A stretch of 58,317 bases of DNA from a virus (Duplodnaviria > Caudoviricetes), in IMG/VR virus record IMGVR_UViG_3300031774_000014, positions 1 through 58,317 of that record. One strand, given 5' to 3'. The position numbers and the translations under genes are program-made. Of this stretch, positions 28,885-48,702 are shown piece after piece (the first letter of the stretch is position 1; each line of letters starts with the position of its first letter). The notes below the pieces were generated by a model. The model was given only the letters and a program-made list of their open reading frames with translations, made no database searches and was not told where the DNA came from.

Positions 28885-28934
28885 AGTTCGTTTACTGTGA
28901 GCCCGAATAATAAGCAAGGGCAGGGCCCCAGAAA

Positions 28935-30477: not shown

Positions 30478-31231
30478 CGCCTAAAAATGCTATTCCTTTC
30501 TTGTTTAAAATTGCAGCGGCCTTATCCTTTAAAGTCTTTTTTAAGTTTTTGATCTGTTTGTATCCGGCTTTTCTCCCTGTCTCTGTACTCTTGAAACCCA
30601 TCTCGTGGGCAACTTCTTCGTCTGTCATGTTTTTAATAAATAATAATTCAAAAGCTTGAAACTGTCTAGGATTTAATTGTTTCTTTAATTCTTTTATTAA
30701 TTTTGCTGATGCCACGTCTATGTCTGTCCCAAGTACATTATCTGAACGTGCATCTATTTGATTTATGTGATTTTCTAAAGATAATGTTATTTTGATATTA
30801 TATGCATTCTTCTTGCTCTTAGTCCACTTTTTGTATAGCGGGCATGTGCAGTCTTGCTCTCCAGAGGCTGTAAAACTGCAAAGATTATACTCTGAATCTG
30901 AATTAAATGGGCAATTTAAGCATGGCCTCGCATAATTACTATAATGATTCCTTAGGATATTTTTCATCTGATTGGCGATGATTTTGTTTATCCATGGCTT
31001 GATGGGGCGAGACTGATCCCACTGACTCCATTTATTAAATATATGAGCTCGAATAATCTGGCAAACATCGTCGAAGTCAACCCAGGCAACTGATGTTAAA
31101 AACCAATTCTTCCTTCTTTTGGACAGCTCTTGATCTATTAAGTCTGAGTGATCTTCGTATGTTTGGGTTTCTGGATTGGACGAGGTATCTTTCTTTGAAT
31201 TATTTTCCGGGTTTCTGCTCTGGTTCGACAT
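30461..31231 (-). CDS. Phage RNA polymerase sigma factor (ECF-like) with Cys-rich insertion
   Basis: Region 2 (DFDDVCQ...WINKIIANQMKNILR), region 4 HTH (LNPRQFQAFELLFIKNMTDEEVAHEMG); likely start ATG 31231. Confidence 0.75.
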   Translation of the reverse strand: MSNQSRNPENNSKKDTSSNPETQTYEDHSDLIDQELSKRRKNWFLTSVAWVDFDDVCQIIRAHIFNKWSQWDQSRPIKPWINKIIANQMKNILRNHYSNYARPCLNCPFNSDSEYNLCSFTASGEQDCTCPLYKKWTKSKKNAYNIKITLSLENHINQIDARSDNVLGTDIDVASAKLIKELKKQLNPRQFQAFELLFIKNMTDEEVAHEMGFKSTETGRKAGYKQIKNLKKTLKDKAAAILNKKGIAFLGDDELN

Positions 31232-31514
31232 TGACAATATCTCCGAATTTGTAAGTTTTGTTGCCTGATCCTTCATGAGCTAAATCATAACTCAATCTCC
31301 CAATGCTTGGAACATAGTCAATGTCTGTTTCATCATCTTTCAACGGCACTGAAGCTTTGGATTGCGATGTCTTTTTATTCAGGTTCACTTTTGTCTTTGT
31401 GCTCGACTGAGTTGACACTCCTCCAATAGGTGAGCCGCATGAAGAACAAAATTTAGGTTTAGCCCCAGAGTATGAGACCTTACCTCCACATTCAGTACAA
31501 TATATATGTTGCAT
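31200..31514 (-). CDS. Zinc-ribbon protein
   Basis: CTECG...CSSCG; start reassigned to ATG 31514. Confidence 0.7.
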   Translation of the reverse strand: MQHIYCTECGGKVSYSGAKPKFCSSCGSPIGGVSTQSSTKTKVNLNKKTSQSKASVPLKDDETDIDYVPSIGRLSYDLAHEGSGNKTYKFGDIVNVEPEQKPGK

Positions 31515-31554
31515 ATTATTATATAATAATTGACTGCAAAAAAAAATCAATTAT

Positions 31555-32196
31555 TTATATTAAGTATCCACCTATTGCTCTTGCTTGTGCTTTTATAAAT
31601 TTAAGTAAATAAAGTTCGAAGTCTTCTTCTCCAAATTTTTCCCGAATCTTCACTAGGTCAACATTCCCCTTGACATAGTCTACTCCAAGAATACCTATAA
31701 TGTTGCCATTAAGAGTCTTGATTGGTACATTGAAAATTGACTTAACCCCCTTGGAATGCAGAAGAGATGAAAATGCATGGTCATCTAGACTGTCGGAGTC
31801 AAAACTAAAAAACTTTCCGTCATCAATTAAATGGCTTATATAAGAGTGGTAGTTTGATACTTTATATTCTTGCATCTCGATACATTCTCTACTAGTTCCT
31901 TCTGTGACAATCTCATGAGTACAGCTAAATTTCTGCTGATGCCTGCCTGATAAGTAACTGTTTCCATTGTGGAACTCAATCACATATGCTCTGTCTCCAC
32001 CTAACTCGGTTAAAATGAACTCTAATGCTTTGTATACGTTCCTGCTTTGAAGAGTGTCTTTAATGACCGGGTCCTTGCAGTCAGAATCACAGGAGGCTTG
32101 ATTCCTGTTTTTAAATATTCTATGTCCGAATATTACACTGCTTAATGTAGCCAGTGCAGTAATCACGGATGCTATTATTGTGGACCAATCTATCAT
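31555..32196 (-). CDS. N-terminal TM helix + GAF-like domain (possible holin, T4 gpT-like architecture)
   Basis: Hydrophobic residues 6-24; DRAYVIEFHNG and VPIK..G.IIGILGVDY GAF-like motifs. Confidence 0.5.
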   Translation of the reverse strand: MIDWSTIIASVITALATLSSVIFGHRIFKNRNQASCDSDCKDPVIKDTLQSRNVYKALEFILTELGGDRAYVIEFHNGNSYLSGRHQQKFSCTHEIVTEGTSRECIEMQEYKVSNYHSYISHLIDDGKFFSFDSDSLDDHAFSSLLHSKGVKSIFNVPIKTLNGNIIGILGVDYVKGNVDLVKIREKFGEEDFELYLLKFIKAQARAIGGYLI

Positions 32197-32217
32197 TTAA
32201 AAAAATAGTACACTAAT

Positions 32218-32937
32218 TTATTTGTTTTTTAATTTTTTGACTATATATTTAAGTATTTCACTCCTAAAAATATCTGACTCGTTAAATTTAAAGCAATAAA
32301 TCCCCCTGTCTCTGCTTTCATCGTCGTCAAACACTTTAATCATGTCATTAAAACCGCTCTTTCCGTTGATGTCGCTCTGCATTGTGTCGCCACATACAAA
32401 GAGTTTCGTGCCTTCACCAATTCTGGTGATTAACGTAACAAGCTCTCTGAATGTAAAGTTTTGTGATTCATCAGCTATAACGATTTTGTTTAACCAGCTT
32501 GCTCCTCGTAAGAAATTGATTGGCATCGCTTGAACTCTACCGCTTTTAATGAGCTCTTGCTTGATAGTCGTTGTTTTTGGCAACATCTCGTCGAGCTTAT
32601 CTTCTAGTGGAGCCATGTATGGATTAAACTTATCCTCTATGGTGCCAGGAAGGGCTCCAAGGCCTTTTTCCGCACTCTCTATAGCTGTCCTCACATAAAG
32701 CAGATCAAGTTCGCCATCCTGCCTTAGTTGCCTAAGGGCAGCGAAAACCGCCATGTATGTTTTAGTGGATCCGGCTGGTCCAGAAACAAAAATTATTTTG
32801 CATTCTGGATCTAATGCTATATCTACAAATTTTTTTTGTTTTTCACTCAGTTTCAATCCTTTAATTCGGATCTTAGGCTGAAAGGCGTTATCGTTAATGA
32901 TTTCAATCTCTTCTTGATTAATTTTTTTTCTTCCCAT
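32218..32937 (-). CDS. phoH: PhoH-family ATPase
   Basis: GPAGSTKT P-loop, LGALPG, FLRG, DESQN, ITRIG, GD..QSD. Confidence 0.92.
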   Translation of the reverse strand: MGRKKINQEEIEIINDNAFQPKIRIKGLKLSEKQKKFVDIALDPECKIIFVSGPAGSTKTYMAVFAALRQLRQDGELDLLYVRTAIESAEKGLGALPGTIEDKFNPYMAPLEDKLDEMLPKTTTIKQELIKSGRVQAMPINFLRGASWLNKIVIADESQNFTFRELVTLITRIGEGTKLFVCGDTMQSDINGKSGFNDMIKVFDDDESRDRGIYCFKFNESDIFRSEILKYIVKKLKNK

Positions 32938-36300: not shown

Positions 36301-36804
36301 TTAATTAAATTCACCCATTAGGCAAGGGTCACGAGCCACAATAGCGGAATATCGGGGAGTGTCTCTAACCGGGTTCACCCAGTGCATCGCACCTTTTTCA
36401 ATGTGTAGCACCCGACCAGGAATGTCATTGTAGAAATTGAATCTTTTGTTGTGTTTGTCCTCTATCACAATACCATCATGTTCCGATGATGTGAACACCA
36501 TCAAAGCATGCCATGGCCAAGGATCATGGTGTGGTGGTATGTAATCTCCTTGATCGTACCTGTTCACACCAACATATGACCAATCATCAGGTATGTCGAT
36601 TTCTTTAGCGAATTGAGACAACACCCAATCAACTAGTTGAGGAGTCATGTTATTCAAAGGTTGTTTATCTTCTGGGAGAACCTTTATTGCGGATGACTCG
36701 CGATAAGCTAAATTGTAACGTGGATACTTGACGTGATCCATTGAAGACTCAAGTGCTGGGCGATGCCATTGCACATTTTGTTCTATTCTATCAATGAAAC
36801 TCAT
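36301..36804 (-). CDS. 2OG-Fe(II) oxygenase
   Basis: NRY..GD.I.PHxD, distal H (HWV), RYS motif. Confidence 0.8.
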   Translation of the reverse strand: MSFIDRIEQNVQWHRPALESSMDHVKYPRYNLAYRESSAIKVLPEDKQPLNNMTPQLVDWVLSQFAKEIDIPDDWSYVGVNRYDQGDYIPPHHDPWPWHALMVFTSSEHDGIVIEDKHNKRFNFYNDIPGRVLHIEKGAMHWVNPVRDTPRYSAIVARDPCLMGEFN

Positions 36805-38297
36805 AATCTACCTGCGATCCTGGTCCAAGAGTATTTATTATTAGCATTATCATCAAAAAGACTGTAATTTCCTTGACCGATTCCGAACAAATGACCTTTT
36901 GCATCTACATACACTGCAAAACCAACACCATCACCATATGCACCAGTGTAACATCTGAACTGAACCGGTGTGGTTGGTGTGTTGGACCGTGTAAATATTA
37001 ATTGAGCGCTGGTTATACCATTTCCTATCTGTCCGTATCCATTGTTACCAGCAGCATACAGTTGTTTATCATCGCTGAGAGCGTAAGCTGTTGTTTCGGA
37101 GCCATAATTGCACAAGAACATTTTGGTGATATTTTTGTCGCTCAAATCTGGTACCAACTCCCATGTGTTTCTGCTGGTAGTATCACCAAGACCAAGTTGT
37201 CCGTATGAATTGCGACCACAACTGTATATGTTACCATCTGTCTTCAACACATACGCACTGGCAGAACTTCCACCGGCAACCCAAAAATCAACCACGTCGT
37301 TGGTTACTGTGATTTGAGGAGTTCCGGAATGTGTGGTGTTTCCAACTCCCAGTTGACCATAAGCGTTGTAACCCCATGCGTACAACCGACCAGTGGATGT
37401 TCTTACATACACAGTTGTGGCGTGACCGTTAGTAACTATTTTCATGTCCACAACTTGTTGGTCTATCATACCTCCTTGAATAACTTTGTGCCAATTTTGA
37501 TGTTCAGCTTCTGTACCGGTACTAGTTGTACCATCACCTCGTTGACCATAACTATTACAACCGGTGGTTTCAACAGTACCGTCGTGTTTCAACACGAATC
37601 CACACTGACCGTAATATGTGTTTGTATGACCAATACTCGTGGTGGTCCACTGACGACCACCGATGTATGCTTGCTTTACATTGGTATTGATCAACGCTGG
37701 TGCTGGCCCCAACGTATTCATTTGATTATTATTTATACCCAAACCAAACAGATAACCATGTGGATTGTGACCTGAGCCATACAAATCACCATTTTCCATC
37801 AAATAGTAAAATGTTTTATGATTGTGGGATCCAGTGGAAACGTGGATACATTTCAGATCTTCTGGTAAATCCACTTGACCAATCCAATTATTAGTCATGT
37901 GGGTTCCATCCTTGTAACCCAATTGTCTATTGTCATTTAAACCAGTGGCGTAACATTTACCTGTTTTGGAAATTATAAACATATTGTCATGACCTTCGAA
38001 CACCTTGTCCGCTAGTTCACCGTCTGGTAAAGGTAAATTAAGGAAGGCACCATGATTGCTGCTATTACCAGCGCAATGATAGCTTGTGCCACCAAAAACA
38101 CGAGCCTGATGCGCTTGATCGATCAACGCCATTTTATGAGTATGATCGTGCATTATACCGTCACCATGTCCAAATTCTGAGAATTTTTCAACAAGCGTGG
38201 AGTCTAGTTGTCCACCACCGGTGTCGTCAAGAGTTAATTGATAAACAGGATCTGATGCCGTACCTATGTTCTTGTAACTTTTTCCAAATTTTTTCAT
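36801..38297 (-). CDS. RCC1-repeat beta-propeller protein (probable fibre/receptor-binding)
   Basis: Repeated G.(L/V)Y.WG.N.YGQLG.G motifs (about six). Confidence 0.85.
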   Translation of the reverse strand: MKKFGKSYKNIGTASDPVYQLTLDDTGGGQLDSTLVEKFSEFGHGDGIMHDHTHKMALIDQAHQARVFGGTSYHCAGNSSNHGAFLNLPLPDGELADKVFEGHDNMFIISKTGKCYATGLNDNRQLGYKDGTHMTNNWIGQVDLPEDLKCIHVSTGSHNHKTFYYLMENGDLYGSGHNPHGYLFGLGINNNQMNTLGPAPALINTNVKQAYIGGRQWTTTSIGHTNTYYGQCGFVLKHDGTVETTGCNSYGQRGDGTTSTGTEAEHQNWHKVIQGGMIDQQVVDMKIVTNGHATTVYVRTSTGRLYAWGYNAYGQLGVGNTTHSGTPQITVTNDVVDFWVAGGSSASAYVLKTDGNIYSCGRNSYGQLGLGDTTSRNTWELVPDLSDKNITKMFLCNYGSETTAYALSDDKQLYAAGNNGYGQIGNGITSAQLIFTRSNTPTTPVQFRCYTGAYGDGVGFAVYVDAKGHLFGIGQGNYSLFDDNANNKYSWTRIAGRL

Positions 38298-39738: not shown

Positions 39739-39939
39739 ATGAAATTAGTTCTCACAACAATAGGTCAAGGCAAGGTCGCCATAGTAGAAAGCGCCGAAAA
39801 GGCGGATGAACGTAAAGGGGAAATGTACATCAGCCATGCAGTAGCAAGGTACAATGTGGAAAAAGGCAACTTTGTAGATGTATCAGCCAAAGGATGGAAT
39901 CCCGAAGGTCGTCTCTATGTGCTAGCCGAAGACATGTAA
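39739..39939 (+). CDS. Hypothetical protein (66 aa)
   Basis: TTGACT-17-TAAATT-6-ATG; stop codon is the first TAA of repeat copy 1. Confidence 0.7.
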   Translation: MKLVLTTIGQGKVAIVESAEKADERKGEMYISHAVARYNVEKGNFVDVSAKGWNPEGRLYVLAEDM

Positions 39940-40003
39940 GTCGTTGAGTATCAGGCGCTTATGGCGCCCTGGCCCGCCTAAGTCGTTGACTATCAGTGGG
40001 TTA
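39937..40003. repeat. 67-bp double-dyad element, copy 1 (between convergent genes)
   Basis: TAAGTCGTTGAGTATCAGGCGCTTA-TGGCGCCCTGGCCCGCC-TAAGTCGTTGACTATCAGTGGGTTA. Confidence 0.95.
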
Positions 40004-40008
40004 CGGGT

Positions 40009-40263
40009 TTAATTACACCATTCGGCGTCTTCTCCTTGTTCGTCCATTAGCCACTCGTCTAGTGCGTAGGTGTCAAGGTCAGGATCGTTATAGCTCACCC
40101 CGTCAGGGGTGACAGGGGTGCCGCAATCTACTAGCGCTTGAGCTAGGTCTTTGTAGTGAACGAACCGACGCGCCTTCTTATAAAGACTCCGGTCGTTGCC
40201 TAGCCATAGCGCTACGTTCCAAGTCTCCCAATTCTTCCATCCGTTGTATGTTGTATCTGTCAT
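40009..40263 (-). CDS. Conserved phage hypothetical protein
   Basis: YNGWKNWETWNVALWL.ND motif typical of a widespread phage family. Confidence 0.8.
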   Translation of the reverse strand: MTDTTYNGWKNWETWNVALWLGNDRSLYKKARRFVHYKDLAQALVDCGTPVTPDGVSYNDPDLDTYALDEWLMDEQGEDAEWCN

Positions 40264-40265
40264 AA

Positions 40266-40469
40266 TTAACTTTCTTTGAATTCTTTTATAATTTGTTCCA
40301 TTTGTGAAAGTACAGATTTTTTGTTTCCTTTGAATCCGTACTCAGTTTTTGCGATTGAATATGCTGATTGACCTCTTCCCTTCATTCCAAGACACTCTAA
40401 CTTGAGCGCGGATCTTATACTGAGAAATCGAAACATATCAATTTGTTCGGGTGTTTTTAATACTAACAT
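40266..40469 (-). CDS. Hypothetical protein (67 aa)
   Basis: TTGACA-17-TAGATT-6-ATG. Confidence 0.8.
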   Translation of the reverse strand: MLVLKTPEQIDMFRFLSIRSALKLECLGMKGRGQSAYSIAKTEYGFKGNKKSVLSQMEQIIKEFKES

Positions 40470-40505
40470 AATAATAATCTAGTTGAGTTTTTCGGTTTTG
40501 TCAAA

Positions 40506-40691
40506 TTAAATAACAAGGCAATTAGCGATAGCCATTTGGTCAATAGCATCACAAATCTGTTCTTTCTCAAGTTCTGCATTGATGATTGTACCTTGTGACC
40601 AATTACAACCTGCATCTGCATCGATTTTCTCTGAGTCGATAATTTGTTGAAGTTGGTTAATTCTTTCGTTGAGTTCTTTTAATGTTGTCAT
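40506..40691 (-). CDS. Hypothetical protein (61 aa)
   Basis: TTGCTA-17-TAGTTT-6-ATG; repeat copy 2 at -66. Confidence 0.8.
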   Translation of the reverse strand: MTTLKELNERINQLQQIIDSEKIDADAGCNWSQGTIINAELEKEQICDAIDQMAIANCLVI

Positions 40692-40756
40692 AATAGTAAA
40701 CTAACACCCTAACCTAATTATAGCAAGAAAAAAGTTAAATTAAATGCATGTTGCCA

Positions 40757-40823
40757 TAAGCACTTGACTATCAGGCACTTATGGCGCCCCGGCCCGCCTA
40801 AGTCGTTGACCATCAACAACTTA
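40757..40823. repeat. 67-bp double-dyad element, copy 2
   Basis: TAAGCACTTGACTATCAGGCACTTA-TGGCGCCCCGGCCCGCC-TAAGTCGTTGACCATCAACAACTTA. Confidence 0.95.
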
Positions 40824-40835
40824 GGGGGGATTATG

Positions 40836-40946
40836 CTACTTTTCCCAAGTGTCGTCTTGCCCAAGCATACATTGAAACATAAGAAAGAAAGCAAAGAATG
40901 TGGGCGTCAAGAAGAAAAAGTAAATAATAAATTCTAAAATACTCAC
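40836..40946 (-). CDS. 36-aa single-TM peptide (not in ORF track)
   Basis: GTG overlapping upstream stop; MSILEFIIYFFFLTPTFFAFFLMFQCMLGQDDTWEK. Confidence 0.55.
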   Translation of the reverse strand: MSILEFIIYFFFLTPTFFAFFLMFQCMLGQDDTWEK

Positions 40947-41209
40947 TTGTAAAGTCCTTTCATTTGGTCGCTAATACCAAGATCCAAATCCTCTTCGTCA
41001 ATCGACTCGGCAGTAGGGTTGTAATCAATAAGAGACATCTCGTCTTCGATGTCATGCTTTTGATTGTCAAGTAATCCATGCTCGCCCAAAACCTCTTGAG
41101 ACTTAATCTCTGAAACAAAATCTTCTAGAGACTTGTTGAGACCAAGACCTTTAGGCGATTGGACGGCGTGCTTAATGATGGATAATCTTTGTTCTTGTGT
41201 TAATGTCAT
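40943..41209 (-). CDS. Acidic hypothetical protein (88 aa)
   Basis: Coupled ORF; N-terminus resembles that of 41206-41472. Confidence 0.75.
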   Translation of the reverse strand: MTLTQEQRLSIIKHAVQSPKGLGLNKSLEDFVSEIKSQEVLGEHGLLDNQKHDIEDEMSLIDYNPTAESIDEEDLDLGISDQMKGLYK

Positions 41210-41472
41210 AGTTTTAATTGTTTTAATTGTTTATCATTTATAGACTGTCTCATTAAATAAGTCAATTCATTATCATACTTTTGTTGCTCTTTAGCTGACT
41301 CAAGAGCATAATTTGCTTCAATACCGCATTTAACTAAAAGATTTACTTGTTGAAATGTTTCTAGTCTTAGTTTAGCTTTTGACTTTCTATAATTAGCTTG
41401 AAGTTTGTTTTGTTTTTGTCGGGTTGCTTCTTTTTGGATAAGCGAGATTCTTTCTTGTTTTTTTAATGTCAT
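41206..41472 (-). CDS. Hypothetical protein (88 aa)
   Basis: TTGACA-17-TAATTT-6-ATG. Confidence 0.75.
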   Translation of the reverse strand: MTLKKQERISLIQKEATRQKQNKLQANYRKSKAKLRLETFQQVNLLVKCGIEANYALESAKEQQKYDNELTYLMRQSINDKQLKQLKL

Positions 41473-41481
41473 AATAGTAAA

Positions 41482-41709
41482 TTAGTTTAATGGTAATGCT
41501 TTGTCAAGCCTTGTGATAACAAATCGCCTAATGTTTTTAAGCACATCTCTTAATTTTATTTCAACCCTTGCTCTACTTACATCAATCTCTTCCCCTATCT
41601 CTCTGAGTTTCATCTTATGCCAATAGCGCATTTCTAATAGTTCTGAGTCTTCATTGTTCAAGCGAGCCATAACTTGCTCGATGTAATCTTTTGTTTCGTA
41701 TGGTGTCAT
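41482..41709 (-). CDS. Stand-alone sigma70 region-4-like HTH protein
   Basis: L...D..LL..RY...M.LREIGE...VSR.RV pattern; TTGCTT-17-TACCTT-6-ATG. Confidence 0.75.
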   Translation of the reverse strand: MTPYETKDYIEQVMARLNNEDSELLEMRYWHKMKLREIGEEIDVSRARVEIKLRDVLKNIRRFVITRLDKALPLN

Positions 41710-41729
41710 AATAGTAAGGTAAATTAGTT

Positions 41730-42086
41730 TTAGGAGTTAAGCAAGCTTTTTTCTTCACGAATTGCAACGAGTAAATCTTCGTGAGCTTTTCCGTCAAGTT
41801 GAAATTGTCTCATGAGTTTAGAAATGTCAATAGGTTTTTGCCATCCTAGCACATCATCATATAAAGAAAGAGGAACTTTCTTTCTGTCTCCGCCCTCATC
41901 AAATTGAGCACCAAACACTGCAACTTCAAAAGTTTCATGCTGATAAGTACCATAAGGCAAAGACCAATCGTCTTCTATGTCGCCCGCAATAACAGAAAAT
42001 AAATATCCGTTGTCAAGCTCAAGTGATGCAGTCCATCTTTTAATATCTTTGTGGTGTGTGAATTTTAAATCATTGAATGTTTTCAT
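41730..42086 (-). CDS. Conserved phage hypothetical protein
   Basis: MKTF.DL.F...NGY..SV...YG....FEVAV...DDVLGW pattern; TTGACA-17-TAGTTT promoter. Confidence 0.8.
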   Translation of the reverse strand: MKTFNDLKFTHHKDIKRWTASLELDNGYLFSVIAGDIEDDWSLPYGTYQHETFEVAVFGAQFDEGGDRKKVPLSLYDDVLGWQKPIDISKLMRQFQLDGKAHEDLLVAIREEKSLLNS

Positions 42087-42119
42087 ATAATAATAAACTA
42101 AATTAGTTTGTTTTGTTTG

Positions 42120-42512
42120 TCAACTATTATCTTCAAGGCTTGCCCACTCTGCTTCGCCCGCAATAATATCCATGATGTCAGAAATAACTTGATCGTAAAT
42201 TTTAGCATCCATTCTGTGATACTTGTTAAGCTTTTTATCAAATTCTTTACAAGCCTGACTTATAAAACATGGAGCATGGTCAACGAACCGATTAAAGAGT
42301 CCGTCATCTGTGTGAATGACATTTTTTTTCTTGCCCGATTCTATAATCTCTTCCAATTCACTTTCTATCCAGTCTTCATGCTCTTCGGAAATTTCACCAC
42401 AATCTTTGTAATATTGTTTTTTTCTTTCTCCTATTAGTTCTTGATGTAATTTTTTATGCTCAATCAAGTCGTCTCTTAATTCAAATAATTTTTTAAAAGT
42501 TTCTTTTTTCAT
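42120..42512 (-). CDS. Hypothetical protein (130 aa)
   Basis: Start reassigned to MKKETF using upstream TTGACA promoter. Confidence 0.75.
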   Translation of the reverse strand: MKKETFKKLFELRDDLIEHKKLHQELIGERKKQYYKDCGEISEEHEDWIESELEEIIESGKKKNVIHTDDGLFNRFVDHAPCFISQACKEFDKKLNKYHRMDAKIYDQVISDIMDIIAGEAEWASLEDNS

Positions 42513-42517
42513 AATAA

Positions 42518-42757
42518 TTATATAACTTCTTGTAAGTCTTTTGTCAATGCTCTTTCTGCATCTACTTGTTCTTGTAATAAGTTGAGTTTGTTTAGTAAGC
42601 CTTTGTAGCCGATATAGTCGCCACGAAAGTGACCTTTCCATACTCCGTCAACTCGTTGAAATGTGATATCCCACTTCGATTTATAGTCATAAGTTCTTAG
42701 CAAGCCATTTGGCAAGCGCTCGAAGTAGAATTCTTTTCCGTTGTCTTTAATTGTCAT
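42518..42757 (-). CDS. Hypothetical protein (79 aa)
   Basis: TTGACA-17-TACTTT-6-ATG fixes start MTIKDNG. Confidence 0.75.
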   Translation of the reverse strand: MTIKDNGKEFYFERLPNGLLRTYDYKSKWDITFQRVDGVWKGHFRGDYIGYKGLLNKLNLLQEQVDAERALTKDLQEVI

Positions 42758-42788
42758 AAATATAAAGTAGTTTAGTTTTTGCTCTGTG

Positions 42789-42971
42789 TCAAATAGAAAC
42801 ACGAATAAATTCTGTAGTGCTGTTACCCACATCAGCGCGGATAAAATGAATCAAATCTTCCTCCAATGCTTGCTCGACTGTGGCGAGGTGATCTTTGAGT
42901 TTGCTACTGTAGAGCCAAATCTCTCCGTCCTGGGTTGAATTGATAAGTTCGATTAGTTCTTTTGTTGTCAT
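42789..42971 (-). CDS. Hypothetical protein (60 aa)
   Basis: TTGCTA-17-TAGTGT-6-ATG; repeat copy 3 at -66. Confidence 0.75.
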   Translation of the reverse strand: MTTKELIELINSTQDGEIWLYSSKLKDHLATVEQALEEDLIHFIRADVGNSTTEFIRVSI

Positions 42972-43036
42972 ACCAATACACTAAGGCATCCGGCTAACTA
43001 TAGCAAGAAAAAAGTGAAATTAATTTAAGATTGTCG

Positions 43037-43103
43037 TAAGTCGTTGACTGCCAGACACTTATGGCGCCCCGGCCCGCCTAAGTCGTTGACTATCAGCGGG
43101 TTA
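43037..43103. repeat. 67-bp double-dyad element, copy 3
   Basis: TAAGTCGTTGACTGCCAGACACTTA-TGGCGCCCCGGCCCGCC-TAAGTCGTTGACTATCAGCGGGTTA. Confidence 0.95.
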
Positions 43104-43114
43104 TAAGATTAATA

Positions 43115-43143
43115 AATGTAGTTGAGTTTGTCGCTCGTGTCAA
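43115..43143 (-). promoter_or_regulatory. Orphan sigma70-type promoter pointing into repeat copy 3
   Basis: TTGACA-17-TACATT with no ATG at +1. Confidence 0.6.
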
Positions 43144-43152
43144 ATTAAAAGA

Positions 43153-43767
43153 TCATTTTTTTTCTTGAGCTTTGTAGTCGGCAACCATGTCATCCGCCTT
43201 TTTTTTGTCAGATTTCTTAAGTTTGCCGATCTCTTCCAGGAAAACTATAGTGCAACGAGATAATTCTGATTCTTTCCACTCTTCAAATATCATATTCAAG
43301 ATTTCTTTACCAATATTCAAAATATTCTTCCACTCAATATCATCATTACGACGCCAAAGTTTATTCCCATAGCTGTTGTAGTATGCTCGATTGACGTATA
43401 AAGAGTCAATATATTCAAGTAATGTATAATTGATTGCATCCTCAGTTCCTGAATCAAACGTGATAAATGCATTGCAAAAATTTTCCAATGTCAAACTCAA
43501 CCCTTGGCCGAAAACACCTTGTCCGATTATAGATTCTTGAAACATATCGAATACTGAGCAAACCCTTGAATTCTCTACTTTAGGAAAGTTTTCTTGCTCT
43601 TCATCTATTAGTGAAAGGTAATCAGCTTCTACATCATGATCAAGTAAAATGTAAACATCTTCTTGTTTTTTAGCAAGCAAGTGCCTGAACAATTCTGACA
43701 TGAAATAGATTTGCCTGTGAGTTAATTGTTGGTAGATTTTTCTGTTGCTTTCTATTGTTGTTGTCAT
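43153..43767 (-). CDS. Hypothetical protein (204 aa)
   Basis: TTGCTA-17-TAGGTT-6-ATG; repeat copy 4 at -66. Confidence 0.85.
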   Translation of the reverse strand: MTTTIESNRKIYQQLTHRQIYFMSELFRHLLAKKQEDVYILLDHDVEADYLSLIDEEQENFPKVENSRVCSVFDMFQESIIGQGVFGQGLSLTLENFCNAFITFDSGTEDAINYTLLEYIDSLYVNRAYYNSYGNKLWRRNDDIEWKNILNIGKEILNMIFEEWKESELSRCTIVFLEEIGKLKKSDKKKADDMVADYKAQEKK

Positions 43768-43832
43768 AATAGTAACCTAACACCGCCACCTAACTATAGC
43801 AAGAAAAAAGTAAAATTAAATGAATGTTGTCG

Positions 43833-43899
43833 TAAGTCGTTAACTATCAGGCACTTATGGCGCCCCGGCCCGCCTAAGTCGTTGACTATCAACAACTTA
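43833..43899. repeat. 67-bp double-dyad element, copy 4
   Basis: TAAGTCGTTAACTATCAGGCACTTA-TGGCGCCCCGGCCCGCC-TAAGTCGTTGACTATCAACAACTTA. Confidence 0.95.
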
Positions 43900-43920
43900 G
43901 GAGACTTTTTGGGGGTTGAC

Positions 43921-44649
43921 TTAGTGGGCTAAGTACGCTATGCCCTTTTTGCATCCCTTAATAAAGCAAAGGTTGCAATTATGCGCTTGACAAGTTGCAA
44001 GAATCTTGCCGTCCTCACCCTTTACATAAGTTGCGGGGCAAACAAAATGTCCGTCTTGCTCGGCTTGCTCTTTGCTAGTATAAACCGAAGTGCCCGCGTC
44101 GAGTCCGTCCACTTGAGGGGCTGGCTCGTCAACATAAATTGCGCTTGGCTTAATGCAAACGTTTTTGAGACTAGCTAACTTTTGCAAGTGGGGAAGTTGA
44201 GAATCGCGCTTCCATTCCCTAGTTGGAAACCAAAATTTGATAGTTGGAAATTGTTCGCAAATCTTAATCCACGCGGTAATATACTTAGGCGAAAATAGGT
44301 CGCCTGAATCATGAACTCGAAACAAATCTGTGTTTGTCTTTTTGAGTTGCTTTTTGTTTCCGTGCTTGTCGAAATACTTTGCGCGAATTTGCTTGCACAT
44401 CTCGTCAATAAAGGTTTGCCCGTTGTCTTGATGTAAAGACTTTGTAATAAGATCCGCCTTGCCTTGTAAACTTGCCTTGACATTGGAAAACATATAAAAG
44501 CCCTTGCAAGCATAGCAAGAATCACAAATAAACTTTTTGCCCGCTTCTTTAATCTTTGCTAATAGCTGCGCGGCAGGGCAATACTTGAAAGCGGGAATGT
44601 TGAACGAATAGCAAGGCATCTTGCTTGGATTGGATAATAAGTTAATCAT
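43921..44649 (-). CDS. GP88-family (radical-SAM-like, Cys-rich) protein
   Basis: LS.PSKMP..SF.IPA..CP, C..CYA.KG.Y, FR.HDSGD, W.PTRE, C-terminal CPA..C...C..C. Confidence 0.8.
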   Translation of the reverse strand: MINLLSNPSKMPCYSFNIPAFKYCPAAQLLAKIKEAGKKFICDSCYACKGFYMFSNVKASLQGKADLITKSLHQDNGQTFIDEMCKQIRAKYFDKHGNKKQLKKTNTDLFRVHDSGDLFSPKYITAWIKICEQFPTIKFWFPTREWKRDSQLPHLQKLASLKNVCIKPSAIYVDEPAPQVDGLDAGTSVYTSKEQAEQDGHFVCPATYVKGEDGKILATCQAHNCNLCFIKGCKKGIAYLAH

Positions 44650-44687
44650 GTATAAAATATAGTTGAGTTGTTTTGAGATTGCAAGCT

Positions 44688-44879
44688 TTAAGCAACTAAA
44701 TCTTCAAAGAAGTCAGGCTCAAGAGAAAATTCACTTACAAAATGATTTTCCCAATCCGATAGTGTACCGCCTTGTCCGATATCTAGCCACATTGCTGAGT
44801 TAAACGCGACCACTTGATCCTCCGCCTCTCGATGAGTTAATCCGTCGCGGTTCATTAAGGTTTTAATTATTCTGTTCAT
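44688..44879 (-). CDS. Conserved phage hypothetical protein (63 aa)
   Basis: I...LM.RDG....EA...F.LEPD motif; TTGTGT-17-TACTTT-6-ATG; repeat copy 5 at -66. Confidence 0.8.
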   Translation of the reverse strand: MNRIIKTLMNRDGLTHREAEDQVVAFNSAMWLDIGQGGTLSDWENHFVSEFSLEPDFFEDLVA

Positions 44880-44944
44880 AAATATAAAGTACCACCAAAC
44901 CTAACCGAACACAAGAAAAAAGTGAATTAAATCGAAAGTTGTCG

Positions 44945-45011
44945 TAAGTCGTTGGCTATCAGGCACTTATGGCGCCCGGGGCGCTGTAAGTCGTTGACTA
45001 TCAGTGGGTTA
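44945..45011. repeat. 67-bp double-dyad element, copy 5
   Basis: TAAGTCGTTGGCTATCAGGCACTTA-TGGCGCCCGGGGCGCTG-TAAGTCGTTGACTATCAGTGGGTTA. Confidence 0.95.
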
Positions 45012-45029
45012 TACAACTTATACCCCCAC

Positions 45030-45059
45030 AAAAAAGCCCCTCCGACAACGGGAGGGGCT
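45030..45059 (-). terminator. Intrinsic terminator
   Basis: AGCCCCTCC-cgttgtc-GGAGGGGCT + T-run. Confidence 0.85.
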
Positions 45060-45078
45060 GTATTTGGCAAGATCGTAT

Positions 45079-45237
45079 TTATCGTCCTCGCTTTTCCAAT
45101 TGATACAATTTATCCAAAAGGCCCATATGCTGAGATTTTAGGTTATAATAATCCGGAGTGTTCTCTCCGTAAATCTCGCGCACTGCGAGTTGATATCCAA
45201 GTTTACGAATGTTGTCCTGTAGTGTTTTAATTGACAT
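45079..45237 (-). CDS. 52-aa hypothetical protein (not in ORF track)
   Basis: MSIKTLQDNIRKLGYQLAVREIYGE...; fills gap between WYL-like ORF and terminator. Confidence 0.65.
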   Translation of the reverse strand: MSIKTLQDNIRKLGYQLAVREIYGENTPDYYNLKSQHMGLLDKLYQLEKRGR

Positions 45238-45242
45238 AATTT

Positions 45243-45476
45243 TTATCCTCTGTTAAGTGAAATGACGCGATCATAGCGAAAAGAACGGATTCCGCCTTTG
45301 TTGAAGCAATAAGCTCTAAAGCCCGCAACCGAAAGACCTTCCTTCGAATTGCCGAACTCGTTCTTGTGTTTTGGTTTAGTGATGGTGTACATCTGAGTGA
45401 CTCCGTTAGCCTTGGTATAAAGCACTTGGTAGCGCGCATTAAATAGACTAAGAATTTTGTTTAATAACTTCTTCAT
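45243..45476 (-). CDS. Small WYL-like (SH3-fold) domain protein
   Basis: Y.K.NG N-terminal strand and AYC....IRSFRYDRV motif; SD GGAG before ATG 45476. Confidence 0.6.
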   Translation of the reverse strand: MKKLLNKILSLFNARYQVLYTKANGVTQMYTITKPKHKNEFGNSKEGLSVAGFRAYCFNKGGIRSFRYDRVISLNRG

Positions 45477-45699
45477 TTTCTTCTTCTCCTGTGATAGGGT
45501 TTTGATTGTAGTGGTTGTAAGCATCAGTCACTTCTTGTGCTGATTCGAAACTTACAGAAATAATATCTCTTGTGTTGTATGGGTGGTAATCTGTGGAAGA
45601 CTCTTCAAAGAATAACTCCCAAAGCTCGCTTACTTCATCCCATGTTGGTAAATCTAGTGGTCTGCCGATGCAGGTTGCTTCTATGTAATTGTTTTTCAT
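45448..45699 (-). CDS. Hypothetical protein (83 aa)
   Basis: Coupled ORF. Confidence 0.7.
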   Translation of the reverse strand: MKNNYIEATCIGRPLDLPTWDEVSELWELFFEESSTDYHPYNTRDIISVSFESAQEVTDAYNHYNQNPITGEEENEEVIKQNS

Positions 45700-45956
45700 T
45701 CTTCTATATTATATATGCCGAAGTGGTTTGCAAGCTTTAAAATGTTAGAATCTTCATTAAAAAAGTGGTAAGCATATGTGAGTAGTGCCTCTTTACTCCT
45801 GTCGTTGTAATCTCTAATCTCATCATAAATCTCAAAAATATTGAGATTCCAATTCCATGATTCTACTATGTCTGACACTTTCTCTCCGTCTACCAAGAGA
45901 GAGCCTGTCTGATCCATAGCTTGTTGCTTTGTTAATTTTGTATAAGTAGTAGTCAT
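45696..45956 (-). CDS. Hypothetical protein (86 aa)
   Basis: Coupled ORF. Confidence 0.7.
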   Translation of the reverse strand: MTTTYTKLTKQQAMDQTGSLLVDGEKVSDIVESWNWNLNIFEIYDEIRDYNDRSKEALLTYAYHFFNEDSNILKLANHFGIYNIEE

Positions 45957-46180
45957 AGTGATGCCCCTTCCATTGAGCCGTTAAGGCATAGTTCGTATTC
46001 TAGTGATTGTAAATCAACAATAATGTCCGCAAGGACTTCTTCTGCTGATTGTACTGTGAATCCATCCACGCCAAGTTCTTGTCCGCGTTCGACATTAGCC
46101 TTGTCCATAGCATCTGCATATCTAAGGTTTCCGTCAACGAGATGGCGAATGGTTTGTATAACTTTTTCTTGTGTCATCAT
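45953..46180 (-). CDS. Hypothetical protein (75 aa)
   Basis: TTGACA-17-TATATT-6-ATG. Confidence 0.75.
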   Translation of the reverse strand: MMTQEKVIQTIRHLVDGNLRYADAMDKANVERGQELGVDGFTVQSAEEVLADIIVDLQSLEYELCLNGSMEGASL

Positions 46181-46194
46181 ATAAACAATATAGG

Positions 46195-46398
46195 TTATCT
46201 GAGTGCGGTTGTCAACTCATTTTGAAACTTTTTTGCTTCAACTAAATCTTTTAAGTCGAAGCTAATAGATACAAGGTTTTCATTGATGTTCTTCATTACC
46301 TTGACGAGATCCTCCATGTTTGCATGTCTGCGGTGTTCCAGCATCTCATCGCTGAGTCCGTCAATGGCGGTTTTAATTGCATATATTTCTTCTTTCAT
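46195..46398 (-). CDS. Hypothetical protein (67 aa)
   Basis: Coupled ORF with GGAG SD. Confidence 0.7.
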   Translation of the reverse strand: MKEEIYAIKTAIDGLSDEMLEHRRHANMEDLVKVMKNINENLVSISFDLKDLVEAKKFQNELTTALR

Positions 46399-46596
46399 TT
46401 AACTATACATTACTCCTTCTAATTCTGATTGCAACCATAATATGGCTTTTTGTCTGATGTCACAGTGTGAGACTTCAGTAAATACATTGTCATTGACTCG
46501 AAGATAAAGATCGTTTCCGTTCTTTTTCTCTGTCTCTAGGTCGTTTTCTTTATACCACTTTTGGGCATAATCTATCATTCTTTGTTCGTGGCTCAT
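46399..46596 (-). CDS. Hypothetical protein (65 aa)
   Basis: Coupled ORF with GAGG SD. Confidence 0.7.
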   Translation of the reverse strand: MSHEQRMIDYAQKWYKENDLETEKKNGNDLYLRVNDNVFTEVSHCDIRQKAILWLQSELEGVMYS

Positions 46597-46597
46597 T

Positions 46598-46702
46598 TTA
46601 ATCCTCGCTGTTTATGTAAGCATTGTATAGTTTTAATAAATCTGCATCAGATCCATGTTCAATGATGCTCATTAGGTAGTCGACAATTTCTTCTTTGTTC
46701 AT
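46598..46702 (-). CDS. 34-aa hypothetical peptide (not in ORF track)
   Basis: MNKEEIVDYLMSIIEHGSDADLLKLYNAYINSED; ATGA overlap upstream, 1-nt gap downstream. Confidence 0.6.
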   Translation of the reverse strand: MNKEEIVDYLMSIIEHGSDADLLKLYNAYINSED

Positions 46703-47112
46703 GATATATAGGCGGTTACTTGGTTGTGTGATAATAAAACTTCATCTGCATAGTATACAAAACTTTCATCCTTCTTGTCAACAAAAGTTTCATACTTATA
46801 GGGGTTGTATGTTACCTCAACTTCTCTAGTGGCAACTTGGGGATTGCGGGATACATTCTCAGCATCCTGAAGATAACCCTTGACAAAAGCATGGACATTC
46901 TTACGCTTCTCACGAAGAACCTTTTCTCTGCCCTTGATGTCAACATGGAAATAGCAATCCCAAAGTCCAATACTTTCTCCCCTGGGAATGTGAGCCTTAA
47001 CTAAACCATGTTGCTTGATGCTCCAACAATCCTTGTGTAGATTCTTGTAAACATATACGGGGCGATTCTTTTTAATCGTGTATCTTGGGTCTTGTTGGTT
47101 TCTCTTAATCAT
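46699..47112 (-). CDS. Conserved phage hypothetical protein (137 aa)
   Basis: VY.NLHK..WSI, GR..VL.EKRKNVHAFV.G, V.YNPY motifs; repeat copy 6 at -66. Confidence 0.85.
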   Translation of the reverse strand: MIKRNQQDPRYTIKKNRPVYVYKNLHKDCWSIKQHGLVKAHIPRGESIGLWDCYFHVDIKGREKVLREKRKNVHAFVKGYLQDAENVSRNPQVATREVEVTYNPYKYETFVDKKDESFVYYADEVLLSHNQVTAYIS

Positions 47113-47177
47113 ATAACTACAATAAGGTAGTTTTTTAATAACTGCAAGAAAAAAATGCGATTAAATGAAAATAGTTG

Positions 47178-47244
47178 TAAACCGTTGAGTACCAACACTT
47201 TATGGCGCCCGGGGCGCCGTAAGTCATTGACTATCAACAACTTA
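47178..47244. repeat. 67-bp double-dyad element, copy 6
   Basis: TAAACCGTTGAGTACCAACACTTTA-TGGCGCCCGGGGCGCCG-TAAGTCATTGACTATCAACAACTTA. Confidence 0.93.
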
Positions 47245-47260
47245 TGAAACTATGTGGCAC

Positions 47261-47288
47261 AAAAAAACCCCCTCCCGAAGGAGGGGGC
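47261..47288 (-). terminator. Intrinsic terminator
   Basis: CCCCCTCC-TTCG-GGAGGGGG + T7. Confidence 0.9.
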
Positions 47289-47310
47289 GAACCAACAACA
47301 TATAACTAAC

Positions 47311-48183
47311 CTATAAAACCTCTACCAACTCGCCTTCTTCAACCTCCATGTCAAGAGTATTGTCGACATGATTATTGATATCGAAACTAACTTCGCCATC
47401 GAGAACAGAATGCAAAGCATCTGACCTATTAGGAAGCTGAACAAGATTGCCCTTGTACACTTCTGTGAAAGCATTGTAAAGAGAATTAACATTGCGATCC
47501 CAAAATTCGGGATGATCGGAAGACTCCCATTGATCGACAACATCAATGATTTTAGATTTCGGCAATGCCCCTGCTTTGCAGGCGCGAATTACTATATCAT
47601 TAGCTTGTGCATTGCTAATCTCTAAATTCTTGTAAGCCTCTATTCTTGAGTCTTGACCATGCCAAAAGCCAAAAAGCTTACCGAGTGCGCGATTGATTGT
47701 AAAATCAAGATCGTTAAGAATGTTTCGAGTATGACGACGCGCAAGCTTGATCGTATTGGTAAAAATTAAATTGTCACAAACAAATGGCGCGTCACCTGCA
47801 CACAATCCCGCAGGAAAAGTTTTGTCGTGAGAATTGCGGATGCCAACTACACAACCACGATCAGTTGAAACCCTGTTAGGGTGATCAACCGAAAATAATC
47901 CGAAGTAATGCTTGCGATCCCTAGCAAGAGAGTGAACCTCATCTTGAATCGTAAAACCATTGGAATCAAGAAACCCTTTGGTGCGCTCAACTACATCATG
48001 GTGAGCGATAGGTTGGTAAGAAACGGCTCGCTCGCCATTGGCATTTTCTTTTTTGCGATACTCTACGGGTGGAGTAGGAACTCCAACAACTTGGTCAAAT
48101 TCTACAAGAGTACGATTACCTCCGCAGATGTTAAGGTTAACAGATTTGCGAGGAGCGGTAGTGATGTTTTGTTCGTTATTCAT
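47311..48183 (-). CDS. DUF932-family protein
   Basis: YQPI.H, IRNSHD, G...FVC.N, RRHT motifs. Confidence 0.75.
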   Translation of the reverse strand: MNNEQNITTAPRKSVNLNICGGNRTLVEFDQVVGVPTPPVEYRKKENANGERAVSYQPIAHHDVVERTKGFLDSNGFTIQDEVHSLARDRKHYFGLFSVDHPNRVSTDRGCVVGIRNSHDKTFPAGLCAGDAPFVCDNLIFTNTIKLARRHTRNILNDLDFTINRALGKLFGFWHGQDSRIEAYKNLEISNAQANDIVIRACKAGALPKSKIIDVVDQWESSDHPEFWDRNVNSLYNAFTEVYKGNLVQLPNRSDALHSVLDGEVSFDINNHVDNTLDMEVEEGELVEVL

Positions 48184-48227
48184 AATGTTGATAATATAGT
48201 AATGATTGTTTTTGTCAATGGTTAATT

Positions 48228-48461
48228 TTAATTGTTGTAAGTTTTTTTTAGTTGGTCGTAGGCATAAGCTTTTCCTGCGATACTTTCAAAAACTTCTTTT
48301 AATAAAGAGTAGCCTAATAAATCCCTAGCATCTAAATCTGCTTTGTCAATGATATTGGTCTCTAATAATTCAGTCGCTGTATCCATTGCTTGTATGGAAT
48401 CTAAATTACTAAAGTCGATCTCTGTGTCGTCTTCGTTGTGTGAGTTAGGTATATAATACAT
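48228..48461 (-). CDS. Hypothetical protein (77 aa)
   Basis: Acidic ORF overlapping upstream 41-aa ORF. Confidence 0.7.
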   Translation of the reverse strand: MYYIPNSHNEDDTEIDFSNLDSIQAMDTATELLETNIIDKADLDARDLLGYSLLKEVFESIAGKAYAYDQLKKTYNN

Positions 48462-48570
48462 AATTTTTCTTGTGTTTAAGTTTGCGGTCTAAAACTTTGT
48501 TATTCATCTTGAAGGCTCTTGCCTTAGTGAAAAGGATTGGTTTTCTTACTTTTACTTCTCTCGCTTTCAT
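48445..48570 (-). CDS. 41-aa highly basic peptide (not in ORF track)
   Basis: TTGCTA-17-TAGTAT-6-ATG; MKAREVKVRKPILFTKARAFKMNNKVLDRKLKHKKNYVLYT; repeat copy 7 at -66. Confidence 0.75.
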   Translation of the reverse strand: MKAREVKVRKPILFTKARAFKMNNKVLDRKLKHKKNYVLYT

Positions 48571-48635
48571 ATATACATACTAGGCTAGTTTTTTAATTAT
48601 AGCAAGAAAAAAGTTCGACTAAATGAAAATAGTCG

Positions 48636-48702
48636 TAAGTCTTTGGCTATCAGGCGCTTATGGCGCCAGGGGCGCCGTAACCCCTTGACTATCAAAACTT
48701 TA
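48636..48702. repeat. 67-bp double-dyad element, copy 7
   Basis: TAAGTCTTTGGCTATCAGGCGCTTA-TGGCGCCAGGGGCGCCG-TAACCCCTTGACTATCAAAACTTTA. Confidence 0.92.

Follow-up and report, generated by a model that had tools for sequence, protein, structure and literature searches.

The early-promoter stem-loop elements (PeSL) of T4-like phages are described as joining a strong sigma-70-like early promoter, an A/T tract 5' of the -35 hexamer and a G/C-tract stem-loop; they are enriched in hyperplastic regions of small ORFans and are reported to mediate modular shuffling and the formation of mini-circles (PMC2839356, PMC4122927). The extended start-associated sequences (ESAS) of Cluster K mycobacteriophages and the 17-bp palindromes of Cluster O mycobacteriophages are intergenic inverted repeats present in many copies, and their function is given as unknown in these accounts (PMC3203893, PMC4351075). 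The stoperators of Cluster A mycobacteriophages are described as asymmetric sites bound by the monomeric immunity repressor of temperate phages (PMC9283540), and in the account of the MotA-dependent middle promoters of T4, the -35 hexamer is replaced by a TGC-containing motif located 12 ± 1 nt from the -10 hexamer (PMC2988021). Here we analyze a marine phage sequence of 58,317 nt, the IMG/VR record IMGVR_UViG_3300031774_000014 (this whole stretch is called the window below), whose early region contains seven 67-bp units, each consisting of two palindromic boxes around a GC-rich core. Functionally, the nearest described system is PeSL. We judge the chances to be about even that the units are PeSL-like regulatory cassettes carrying a conserved operator for a dimeric protein and serving as passive substrates of homologous recombination.

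Seven paired-box units in the early region

A sequence-only reading of the window had placed seven 67-bp units in the early region, all in one orientation, and repeat search, core scan and matrix scan recover the same seven. The repeat search of the 58-kb window revealed a 78-nt family with seven copies at 67-100% identity to the reference, and a 174-nt family with six copies that corresponds to copies 2-7 together with the promoter and the first codons of the gene. Scanning with the 17-base box core at up to 3 mismatches gave 13 forward matches and none in reverse, and the reversed control gave none; the fourteenth box, at 47178, exceeds 3 mismatches to this core. With a position weight matrix (PWM) built from the 14 boxes, their own scores range from 24.3 to 37.4, and no site outside them reaches this range, the best (at 50802) scoring 13.0; the maxima in 20 shuffles are 8.7-15.9. 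The repeats are real and non-random. The units (E1 to E7 for copies 1-7) and the promoter modules linked to six of them are as follows.

39937..40003, plus strand: E1 unit, with box A at 39937-39961, GC core at 39962-39978 and box B at 39979-40003; between open reading frames (ORFs) 39739-39939 (+) and 40009-40263 (-)
40757..40823, plus strand: E2 unit, with box A, 17-nt GC core and box B
40689..40756, minus strand: E2 promoter module, with A/T tract 40756-40727, -35 TTGCTA 40726-40721, -10 40703-40698, ATG 40691-40689; ORF 40506-40691
43037..43103, plus strand: E3 unit, from repeat search and PWM
42969..43036, minus strand: E3 promoter module, -35 TTGCTA, ATG 42971-42969; ORF 42789-42971
43833..43899, plus strand: E4 unit, 21 nt past the stop of the GP88-like ORF 43921-44649
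43765..43832, minus strand: E4 promoter module, -35 TTGCTA, ATG 43767-43765; ORF 43153-43767, a cassette missing in relatives
44945..45011, plus strand: E5 unit; in its core, 6 bp form a stem around a 3-nt loop, lengthened by the box ends to 12 pairs, two of them G-T on the plus strand
44877..44944, minus strand: E5 promoter module, -35 TTGTGT, ATG 44879-44877; ORF 44688-44879
47178..47244, plus strand: E6 unit, from repeat search and PWM
47110..47177, minus strand: E6 promoter module, -35 TTGCAG, ATG 47112-47110; ORF 46699-47112 (L5 gp82-like)
48636..48702, plus strand: E7 unit, from repeat search and PWM
48568..48635, minus strand: E7 promoter module, -35 TTGCTA, ATG 48570-48568; ORF 48445-48570

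The window thus holds 14 boxes arranged as seven pairs, on the plus strand only. The start of box A and that of box B are 42 nt apart in all seven copies, as had been read from the sequence. The strict box consensus proposed at the same time fits nine of the 14 boxes and fails for the other five; every box combines a left arm close to the consensus with a weaker right arm. In copies 2-7, the register is identical (6/6): box A, 30 nt of A/T-rich sequence with CTTTTTTC at its end just before the -35 hexamer, then the hexamer itself, 17 nt, the -10 hexamer, 6 nt and the ATG, so that the fixed distances of 66 bp to the ATG and 30 bp to the -35 first noticed are exact. The -35 hexamers are TTGCTA in four copies, TTGTGT and TTGCAG in one each, and the -10 hexamers follow TAnnnT. 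Copy 1 has no promoter and occupies a 69-nt gap between convergent ORFs, its first three bases being the stop codon of the plus-strand ORF 39739-39939. The proposal that the stops or terminators of upstream genes lie just past box B holds for copies 1, 3, 4, 5 and 6 (5-49 nt) and not for E2 and E7, which are 119 nt and 236 nt from the stop of the preceding gene.

A palindromic box shared by marine phages

All relatives were recruited by the exact 17-mer box core, which occurs in at least 117 IMG/VR stretches on 108 contigs. Among the 117 loci listed, box pairs with a spacing of 38-55 nt are present in 65, and 20 of the loci hold three or more such pairs; some of the 17-mer matches are single chance or coding matches. 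Altogether, 634 boxes are found across the loci at up to 3 mismatches, the densest locus holding 31 within 9.4 kb. In the three relatives rated 90-100% complete (138, 144 and 170 kb), every box lies inside one stretch of 11-13 kb (3/3), and the reversed-pattern control yields a single match across these records. The unit is not specific to the window, the box being common to a large uncultured clade of marine phages. Another 16 loci have a single box ~16 nt upstream of a conserved TTGTGA-type promoter. In several single-box loci (L009, L010, L037, L039, L041, L046, L048 and others; loci are numbered L and genomes G), the box is followed by ~75 nt that are near-identical between contigs and contain a promoter-like TTGTGA-N16-TAGATT site, and the ORFs downstream of these promoters include a cell-wall hydrolase-like protein.

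The sequence logo of 558 unique contexts shows a palindrome that reaches past the recruiting bases, at positions -1, 0 and 18-27, in which C and G precede the box and A-n-G-A-C-T-T-A-C-G follows. The whole site is therefore palindromic over ~29 bp, its 13-bp arms being separated by a 3-bp centre that contains TA. This central triplet is NTA or TAN, and its two orientations are found 69 and 80 times once the recruiting CTA is set aside; the lack of a preferred orientation argues against an intrinsically asymmetric site.

Between the boxes, the core has a mean GC content of 0.85 and a median of 0.92 (129 unique cores) in genomes of 35-39% GC, with G enriched in its first half and C in its second. 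The spacing of the boxes falls into classes: among 146 unique pairs it is 41-42 in 71, 48 in 18, 50 in 18 and 52-53 in 18. Inside one genome it is constant, for instance 42 in 12/12, 50 in 7/7 or 41 in 9/10 pairs, and core similarity is 0.73 within genomes versus 0.54 between them.

Gene context and promoter classes

The surroundings of 138 units vary. A terminator leading in and a promoter leading out are found at 25 units, a promoter only at 47, a terminator only at 25, neither at 25, and promoters on both sides at eight. The box-sense strand runs antisense to the flanking genes at 22 units (-,-) and in sense with them at 18 (+,+), and leaderless-type promoters leave the two sides of the unit equally often (36 vs 37 of 129). 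The candidate that the box itself is a promoter, with the 17-mer followed by a purine, was rejected: every window box lies antisense to the genes, and relatives show no fixed orientation.

Where a start codon follows, the distances from unit to ATG cluster at 65-68 nt (18 cases), 51-53 nt (10) and 41 nt (4). The class at 64-69 nt comprises 19 unique modules from 10 loci of relatives, which have in common the tract CAAC..TGCA..CTTTTTTC, and 15 of them carry a -35 other than TTGAC. The unlinked promoters of the window are of the form TTGACA-N16-18, with 11 of 12 matches. The contrast between non-consensus -35 hexamers at linked promoters and TTGACA at unlinked ones, already drawn by the sequence-only reading, holds in the window, and the non-consensus hexamers recur in relatives; this indicates two promoter classes, of which the one with a weak -35 travels with the boxes. 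The same reading had termed the arrangement an enhancer-promoter module. Unit and promoter do form a conserved module, as the 19 modules of relatives illustrate; the units are not only enhancers, because they are also found without promoters and in either orientation.

A probable DNA site rather than a maintained hairpin

Arm pairing was evaluated over 661 unique boxes, for which the selection criterion was symmetric. Of the paired cells, 5766 show the consensus, 2147 are broken, 434 are wobble pairs and 246 are compensated, the latter compared with 213 ± 13 when the right arms are shuffled. The outer TAA/TTA and inner TTGA/TCAA are invariant or nearly so, the T of TTGA being present in 661/661 boxes. 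The variation of the arms without compensation, first seen in the window, is thereby found again across the family, and it is the pattern of a protein site rather than of a maintained hairpin.

In an RNA-level explanation, three consecutive hairpins (box, GC core, box) would act on the transcript in the manner of the PeSL stem-loop, attenuating or terminating it, stabilising its 3' end or marking it for RNase processing, and the boxes would owe their conservation to structure. We regard such a role as unlikely, with several observations in its favor. The units lie at operon 3' ends and are found at eight convergent versus two divergent junctions, besides E1. The 67-nt units fold with z-scores of -1.3 to -4.6 on both strands, and in several genomes the cores are perfect stems of 5-7 bp with 3-nt loops, lengthened by the box ends and in some cases including G-T pairs. 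Termination of transcription by the PeSL stem-loop has also been shown (PMC2839356). In contrast to what such an element would require of its arms, broken cells far outnumber compensated ones and the right arms of the window boxes pair poorly with the left arms. Over all cores, palindromy is barely above that of shuffles (mean z 0.56) and the hairpin energy relative to shuffled cores has a mean z of -0.7. No terminator is called inside any unit and no T run follows the core on either strand, while 58 of the 138 units already have a canonical terminator alongside. The Rfam scan gave no match to any unit at E ≤ 1, its sole match being sroH at 43643-43703 (E 0.44), outside the units. A structured RNA family was rejected as the identity of the unit on the compensated and broken cells and on the Rfam result. 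An intrinsic terminator was likewise rejected, as the GC hairpin is not directly followed by a T run and separate terminators stand beside E5 and E6:

45035..45059, minus strand: intrinsic-terminator-like hairpin and T run, which transcription reaches 23 nt before E5
47267..47288, minus strand: intrinsic-terminator-like hairpin and T run, 21-23 nt upstream of E6, after the DUF932 ORF 47311-48183

Cassette order differs between relatives at the units

The sequence-only reading had also suggested that the units shuffle cassettes by recombination. The comparison of the gene content between repeats across relatives agrees with it on the breakpoints, since transposition, loss and inversion all break at units. 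The order to which the relatives were compared is given first, together with the cassette that has moved.

REARRANGEMENTS, window transcription order: 48980, E7, DUF932, E6, gp82-like block to 45079, terminator, E5, 44688, GP88-like, E4, 43153-43767, E3, 42789 onward, E2, 40506-40009, E1
47245..48635, minus strand: DUF932 cassette between E7 and E6, found on the opposite side of the gp82-like block in 7/7 relatives showing both

In these seven relatives (L100, L043, L051, L062, L067/G001, L085, L077), the order is reversed: the 45xxx block comes first and the DUF932 cassette second, with a unit on each side of the cassette. At the nucleotide level, window positions 47145-48673 match the DUF932 cassette of L100 from unit to unit, the match stopping inside E7, and the E5 module (44875-45081) matches both of the L100 units that flank DUF932. 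The cassette 43153-43767 is missing in L100, and also in contigs of two metatranscriptome runs from one study, where 4 other letters separate 43104 from 43921 and the sides of the joint measure 36-38 nt. In 4/4 relatives (L043, L050, L072, L025), a gene resembling 39739 points the same way as the early genes, and a unit comes after it; its window counterpart points the other way, and E1 occupies the junction. The genes resembling 40009 and 40506 are inverted in G001, with units at the border. The ends of high-scoring segment pairs (HSPs) fall in or within 40 nt of a unit in 18 of 74 cases, versus ~7% expected by length, an excess that is weak alone because intergenic ends are expected in any case. 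Joints between non-adjacent copies seen in assembled contigs are not evidence, because their sides of 20-28 nt match a box only. One further site abuts a unit:

43143-43115, minus strand: orphan promoter-like site abutting box B of E3, TTGACA-N17-TACATT, with no ATG downstream

It is homologous to the leaderless promoter 40504-40476 and looks like a recombination scar.

As repeated near-identical stretches of 67-174 bp, the units with their promoters would be substrates for ordinary homologous recombination. An active form of mobility, in which the boxes would be sites of a new kind of site-specific recombinase or nuclease and build an integron-like array exchanged as circles between co-infecting phages, seems to us improbable. 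It would account for the strongly conserved sequence at cassette ends, the junctions of permutation, loss and inversion inside or close to units, the homogeneity of cores within a genome, and the persistence of units where no promoter follows, as at E1 and its four counterparts; the mini-circles described for PeSL offer a precedent (PMC2839356). However, profile searches of four records, the window and the three relatives rated 90-100% complete, found no tyrosine recombinase (PF00589, 0/4, the control matching 14/14), no serine recombinase (0/4, control matched) and no Y1 transposase of the REP-associated type (RAYT; PF01797, 0/4, control matched), which bears out the earlier remark that the window has no recombinase and extends it to the three near-complete relatives. 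HSP ends, moreover, fall at gene boundaries anyway, and homologous recombination of the 67-174 bp repeats accounts for the same data. Repetitive extragenic palindromic (REP) or bacterial interspersed mosaic elements with a RAYT were rejected as an identity on the same PF01797 result.

A model for the units and what weighs against it

The reading that we favor, operator-bearing cassettes recombined passively, would work as follows. The units would be composite inter-operon cassettes of the early, hyperplastic region in a large uncultured clade of marine siphovirus-like phages. Each box would be a DNA-level operator for a dimeric sequence-specific protein, either phage-encoded with an unknown fold or supplied by the host, and the two boxes would flank a stiff or hairpin-prone GC core of genome-specific length. 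The unit would be placed after the terminator of the previous operon and, in the conserved module, exactly 30 nt 5' of a leaderless promoter with a weak -35 (TTGCnn), where it would most likely tune initiation through activation or timed shut-off. Homologous recombination between units would move, delete and invert cassettes, and homogenise the copies within a genome.

Several points weigh against this reading. Conservation at the 17 core positions is inflated because the core served as the recruiting criterion. Promoters and terminators are consensus pattern matches only, and 25 of the 138 units have neither nearby. The exact 66-nt register may stem from recent duplication of the 174-nt module rather than from selection, and module ancestry accounts for it equally well as the enhancer-promoter reading. 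About a quarter of the 146 box pairs are out of helical phase, so that the earlier picture of two dimers on one DNA face is not supported. Contigs from RNA libraries span E7, so that the unit can be transcribed or the library contained DNA; these libraries were examined as assembled contigs, and gaps in their cover do not count as evidence. Regarding the binder, a Pfam scan of 10 small ORFs, early-region ones and adjacent ones on the plus strand, gave no DNA-binding domain; the middle block 27763-32937 gave only weak matches to sigma-70 regions 2/4, a zinc ribbon and a zinc finger, and two early ORFs gave nothing. Over 35 ORFs of the window and related loci, Pfam and PHROG scans indicated no box binder, and DUF932, gp82-like and GP88-like proteins have no known DNA-binding fold or solved relative.

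Other matches in the 35-ORF scans were PhoH, an ERCC4-like nuclease, DUF932, gp82-like, GP88-like and a cell-wall hydrolase. No HTH_3 domain (PF01381) was found in the four records (0/4, control matched 14/14), on which an operator for a lambda-type or Xre repressor was rejected. HU/IHF proteins gave none above the cut-off in the four records and one sub-threshold match in one of them. For the T7-type RNA polymerase (PF00940, 0/4 records) and the MotA C-terminal domain there was no match, but the controls were equally silent. The PF00940 search bears on a reading of the boxes as hairpin promoters of an N4-type virion RNA polymerase, a single-subunit enzyme. The right half of the box resembles the IHF consensus, and we keep this as a lead only, the centre having no preferred orientation; the IHF consensus is asymmetric.

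The box regions of four distant genomes share DUF932 and gp82-like genes (4/4) and a GP88-like gene (3/4). Sequence searches of the PDB gave nothing significant, and the Atlas search returned GP88 clusters only. The AlphaFold2 models of the gp82-like protein (predicted local distance difference test, pLDDT, 90.3) and of DUF932 (pLDDT 79.2) had no Foldseek match in the PDB at E ≤ 0.001. It is unlikely that a single undescribed sequence-specific protein, perhaps one of these three, recognises the boxes and both controls the second leaderless promoter class and catalyses or targets cassette exchange. If so, lytic marine phages would have an integron-like cassette system independent of the recombinase families, and the genome-specific GC core would be its crossover or specificity region. 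A selfish or neutral repeat, resembling miniature inverted-repeat transposable elements or maintained by gene conversion and devoid of a regulatory role, is very unlikely: the many copies per genome (up to those 31 in one locus), the apparently concerted evolution within genomes and the free orientation speak for it, but the box is retained across lineages whose proteins are only 35-60% identical, has invariant positions, is restricted to one region and stands in fixed register with a conserved promoter class, and neither a unit-only insertion polymorphism nor a transposase was found.

Proteins of a ~100-residue family, marked by a conserved and very acidic motif at the C terminus, are often encoded within a few kb of boxes (L009:5544-5852, L027:6347-6679, L036:2897-3226 and 14 further loci). 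The family has no Pfam match and no homolog in the window, and could be a candidate DNA mimic or anti-defence protein.

Boxes in bacterial genomes

The sequence-only reading had pointed to candidate host genomes as a place to look for boxes. A double-arm pattern was found in 78 stretches of bacterial genomes, mostly unrelated tandem repeats in which the 11-mer happens to occur, since searching for two direct copies favors repeats of this kind. The 11-base arm lies inside such unrelated tandem or dispersed repeats of metagenome-assembled genomes (MAGs; L127, L145, L152, L175, L187 and others), some with a box-like continuation, in Acidobacteriaceae, one Verrucomicrobiia (4 copies) and a Betaproteobacteria; we assume that chance and search bias explain these arms. 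True units in the bacterial set are confined to a few phage-like MAG contigs. One of them, a 210.8-kb contig of a "Cellvibrionales" MAG, was considered as a prophage and rejected: it is a relative of G001 in circular permutation, and its GC is uniform, at 0.32-0.38. This contig (G004 contig 4, L214-L224) is phage DNA binned into the MAG, and ~87 kb of it have no match in G001. A sample of 400 further genomes from the class of this MAG gave no sign of a host regulon. The full palindrome occurs in 4 of the 400, three with a single chromosomal site and one with 3 on a small contig, which is near the level of the control, found in two genomes.

The phage and its clade

The window is an entire IMG/VR record, rated 45% complete, and is a fragment of a ~130-140 kb uncultured marine siphovirus-like phage. 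G001 (137.7 kb, rated 100% complete) is syntenic with all of it, window positions 76-58255 corresponding to 37.9-118.3 kb of G001. IMG/VR calls G001 and G002 "provirus", yet they have no integrase and no flank of host-like GC. The window encodes a T4-type large terminase (TerL), a 3322-aa tape-measure-like protein, PhoH, an ERCC4-like nuclease, a weak sigma-70-like protein (regions 2 and 4) and many small ORFs. Against 50,697 named phage records, neither megablast with 10.5 kb nor blastn with the 80-nt unit gave a match; the sigma-like protein had no tblastn match among named phages, and TerL is at most 27% identical to that of any of them. TerL has 2053 relatives at E ≤ 1e-30; among the 120 matches listed, no product or phage name is given, and ocean surveys contributed several of them. 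At least 0.6 of the words of the window region are contained in 15 runs of marine, seawater or viral metagenomes.

The 3322-aa ORF lies at 1995-11963 (-), and only its first ~435 residues match tape-measure or minor-tail families. Pfam assigns to it one tail-protein domain, at residues 134-316, the remainder being unmatched; a very long tail is implied if this protein is the tape measure. A 498-aa protein with RCC1-like repeats (36801-38297, -) adjoins the early region.

A Shine-Dalgarno-like motif precedes just 9 of 30 ORFs of at least 120 aa, and many genes begin 6-8 nt past a -10 hexamer; from these patterns, the phage seems as a rule to rely on leaderless translation, and this bears on the nature of its host. 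A GTGTA[ACT]T motif occurs 14-20 nt 5' of the ATG of large middle or late ORFs (38317, 32213, 25860, 19885, 17085, 13440 on the minus strand and 50913 on the plus strand). Eight of 17 such motifs precede an ORF start, versus 0-1 in 20 shuffles; one of the eight, 10 nt away, belongs to the E3-linked early ORF 42789-42971. The motif is a candidate for a nearly leaderless promoter class served by the sigma-like protein of the phage (30461-31276).

Comparison with known systems

Our literature searches found no description of the element: the 11-base arm appears only as a primer or by chance in unrelated papers, and a keyword search on intergenic palindromes of marine phages returned nothing relevant among the papers listed. 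Cassette arrays of small ORFs are also known from integrons, whose attC sites are imperfect palindromes, 57-141 bp long, conserved at the ends and variable in the middle, and located at the 3' end of each cassette. Unlike in integrons, no IntI-type integrase is found here (PF00589, 0/4 records), each cassette has its own promoter-like module instead of one common promoter, and the boxes are direct copies and not an R''/R' pair.

The stoperators resemble the units in having many sites between genes, and are described as repressor sites that act beyond the promoter (PMC9283540). They are set apart by that same description, since the sites here are palindromic, paired and free in orientation, and no integrase or HTH_3 was found. 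As described for ESAS, the left half is nearer to consensus than the right, and as described for Cluster O, a repeat flanks a gene indel (PMC3203893, PMC4351075). The sequences are nevertheless unrelated. In those accounts, ESAS are tied to translation starts and the Cluster O repeats are single 7-3-7 palindromes found genome-wide, whereas our boxes come in pairs with a GC core between them and stay within one region of 11-13 kb. With the MotA promoters, the linked promoters share the existence of a second class with a TGC motif, here in the form cTTGCnnTA; unlike in T4, the motif lies 15 nt from the -10.

The likeness to PeSL, one of sequence patterns, begins with the sigma-70-like promoter pattern and A/T-rich tract, present in exact register at 6 of the 7 window units. 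It includes the hyperplastic location and the indels and replacements between relatives that break at cassettes. As to a G/C stem-loop, the core gives a mixed picture: its median GC is 0.92 and some genomes have perfect hairpins, but the mean hairpin z is only -0.7. Set against the cited descriptions of PeSL, which give it no conserved flanking palindromes, the two clade-wide boxes of ~29 bp are the most conserved part of the unit. The genes here are leaderless while PeSL genes are described with a Shine-Dalgarno sequence, units also occur without a promoter, and the phage is marine and siphovirus-like rather than a T4-like myovirus, as seen from its tape-measure-like protein and the TerL identity.

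Ocean metagenomes contain the clade in abundance, and the conserved operator-like box with its GC core, linked as it is to a separate leaderless promoter class and to the breakpoints of cassettes, provides a searchable DNA marker for its early region and a concrete bait for a new DNA-binding protein. Beyond T4-like myoviruses, the units would be the second and independent instance in which repeated regulatory cassettes drive modular gene shuffling, and PeSL-type evolution would then be a general phage strategy instead of a peculiarity of T4.

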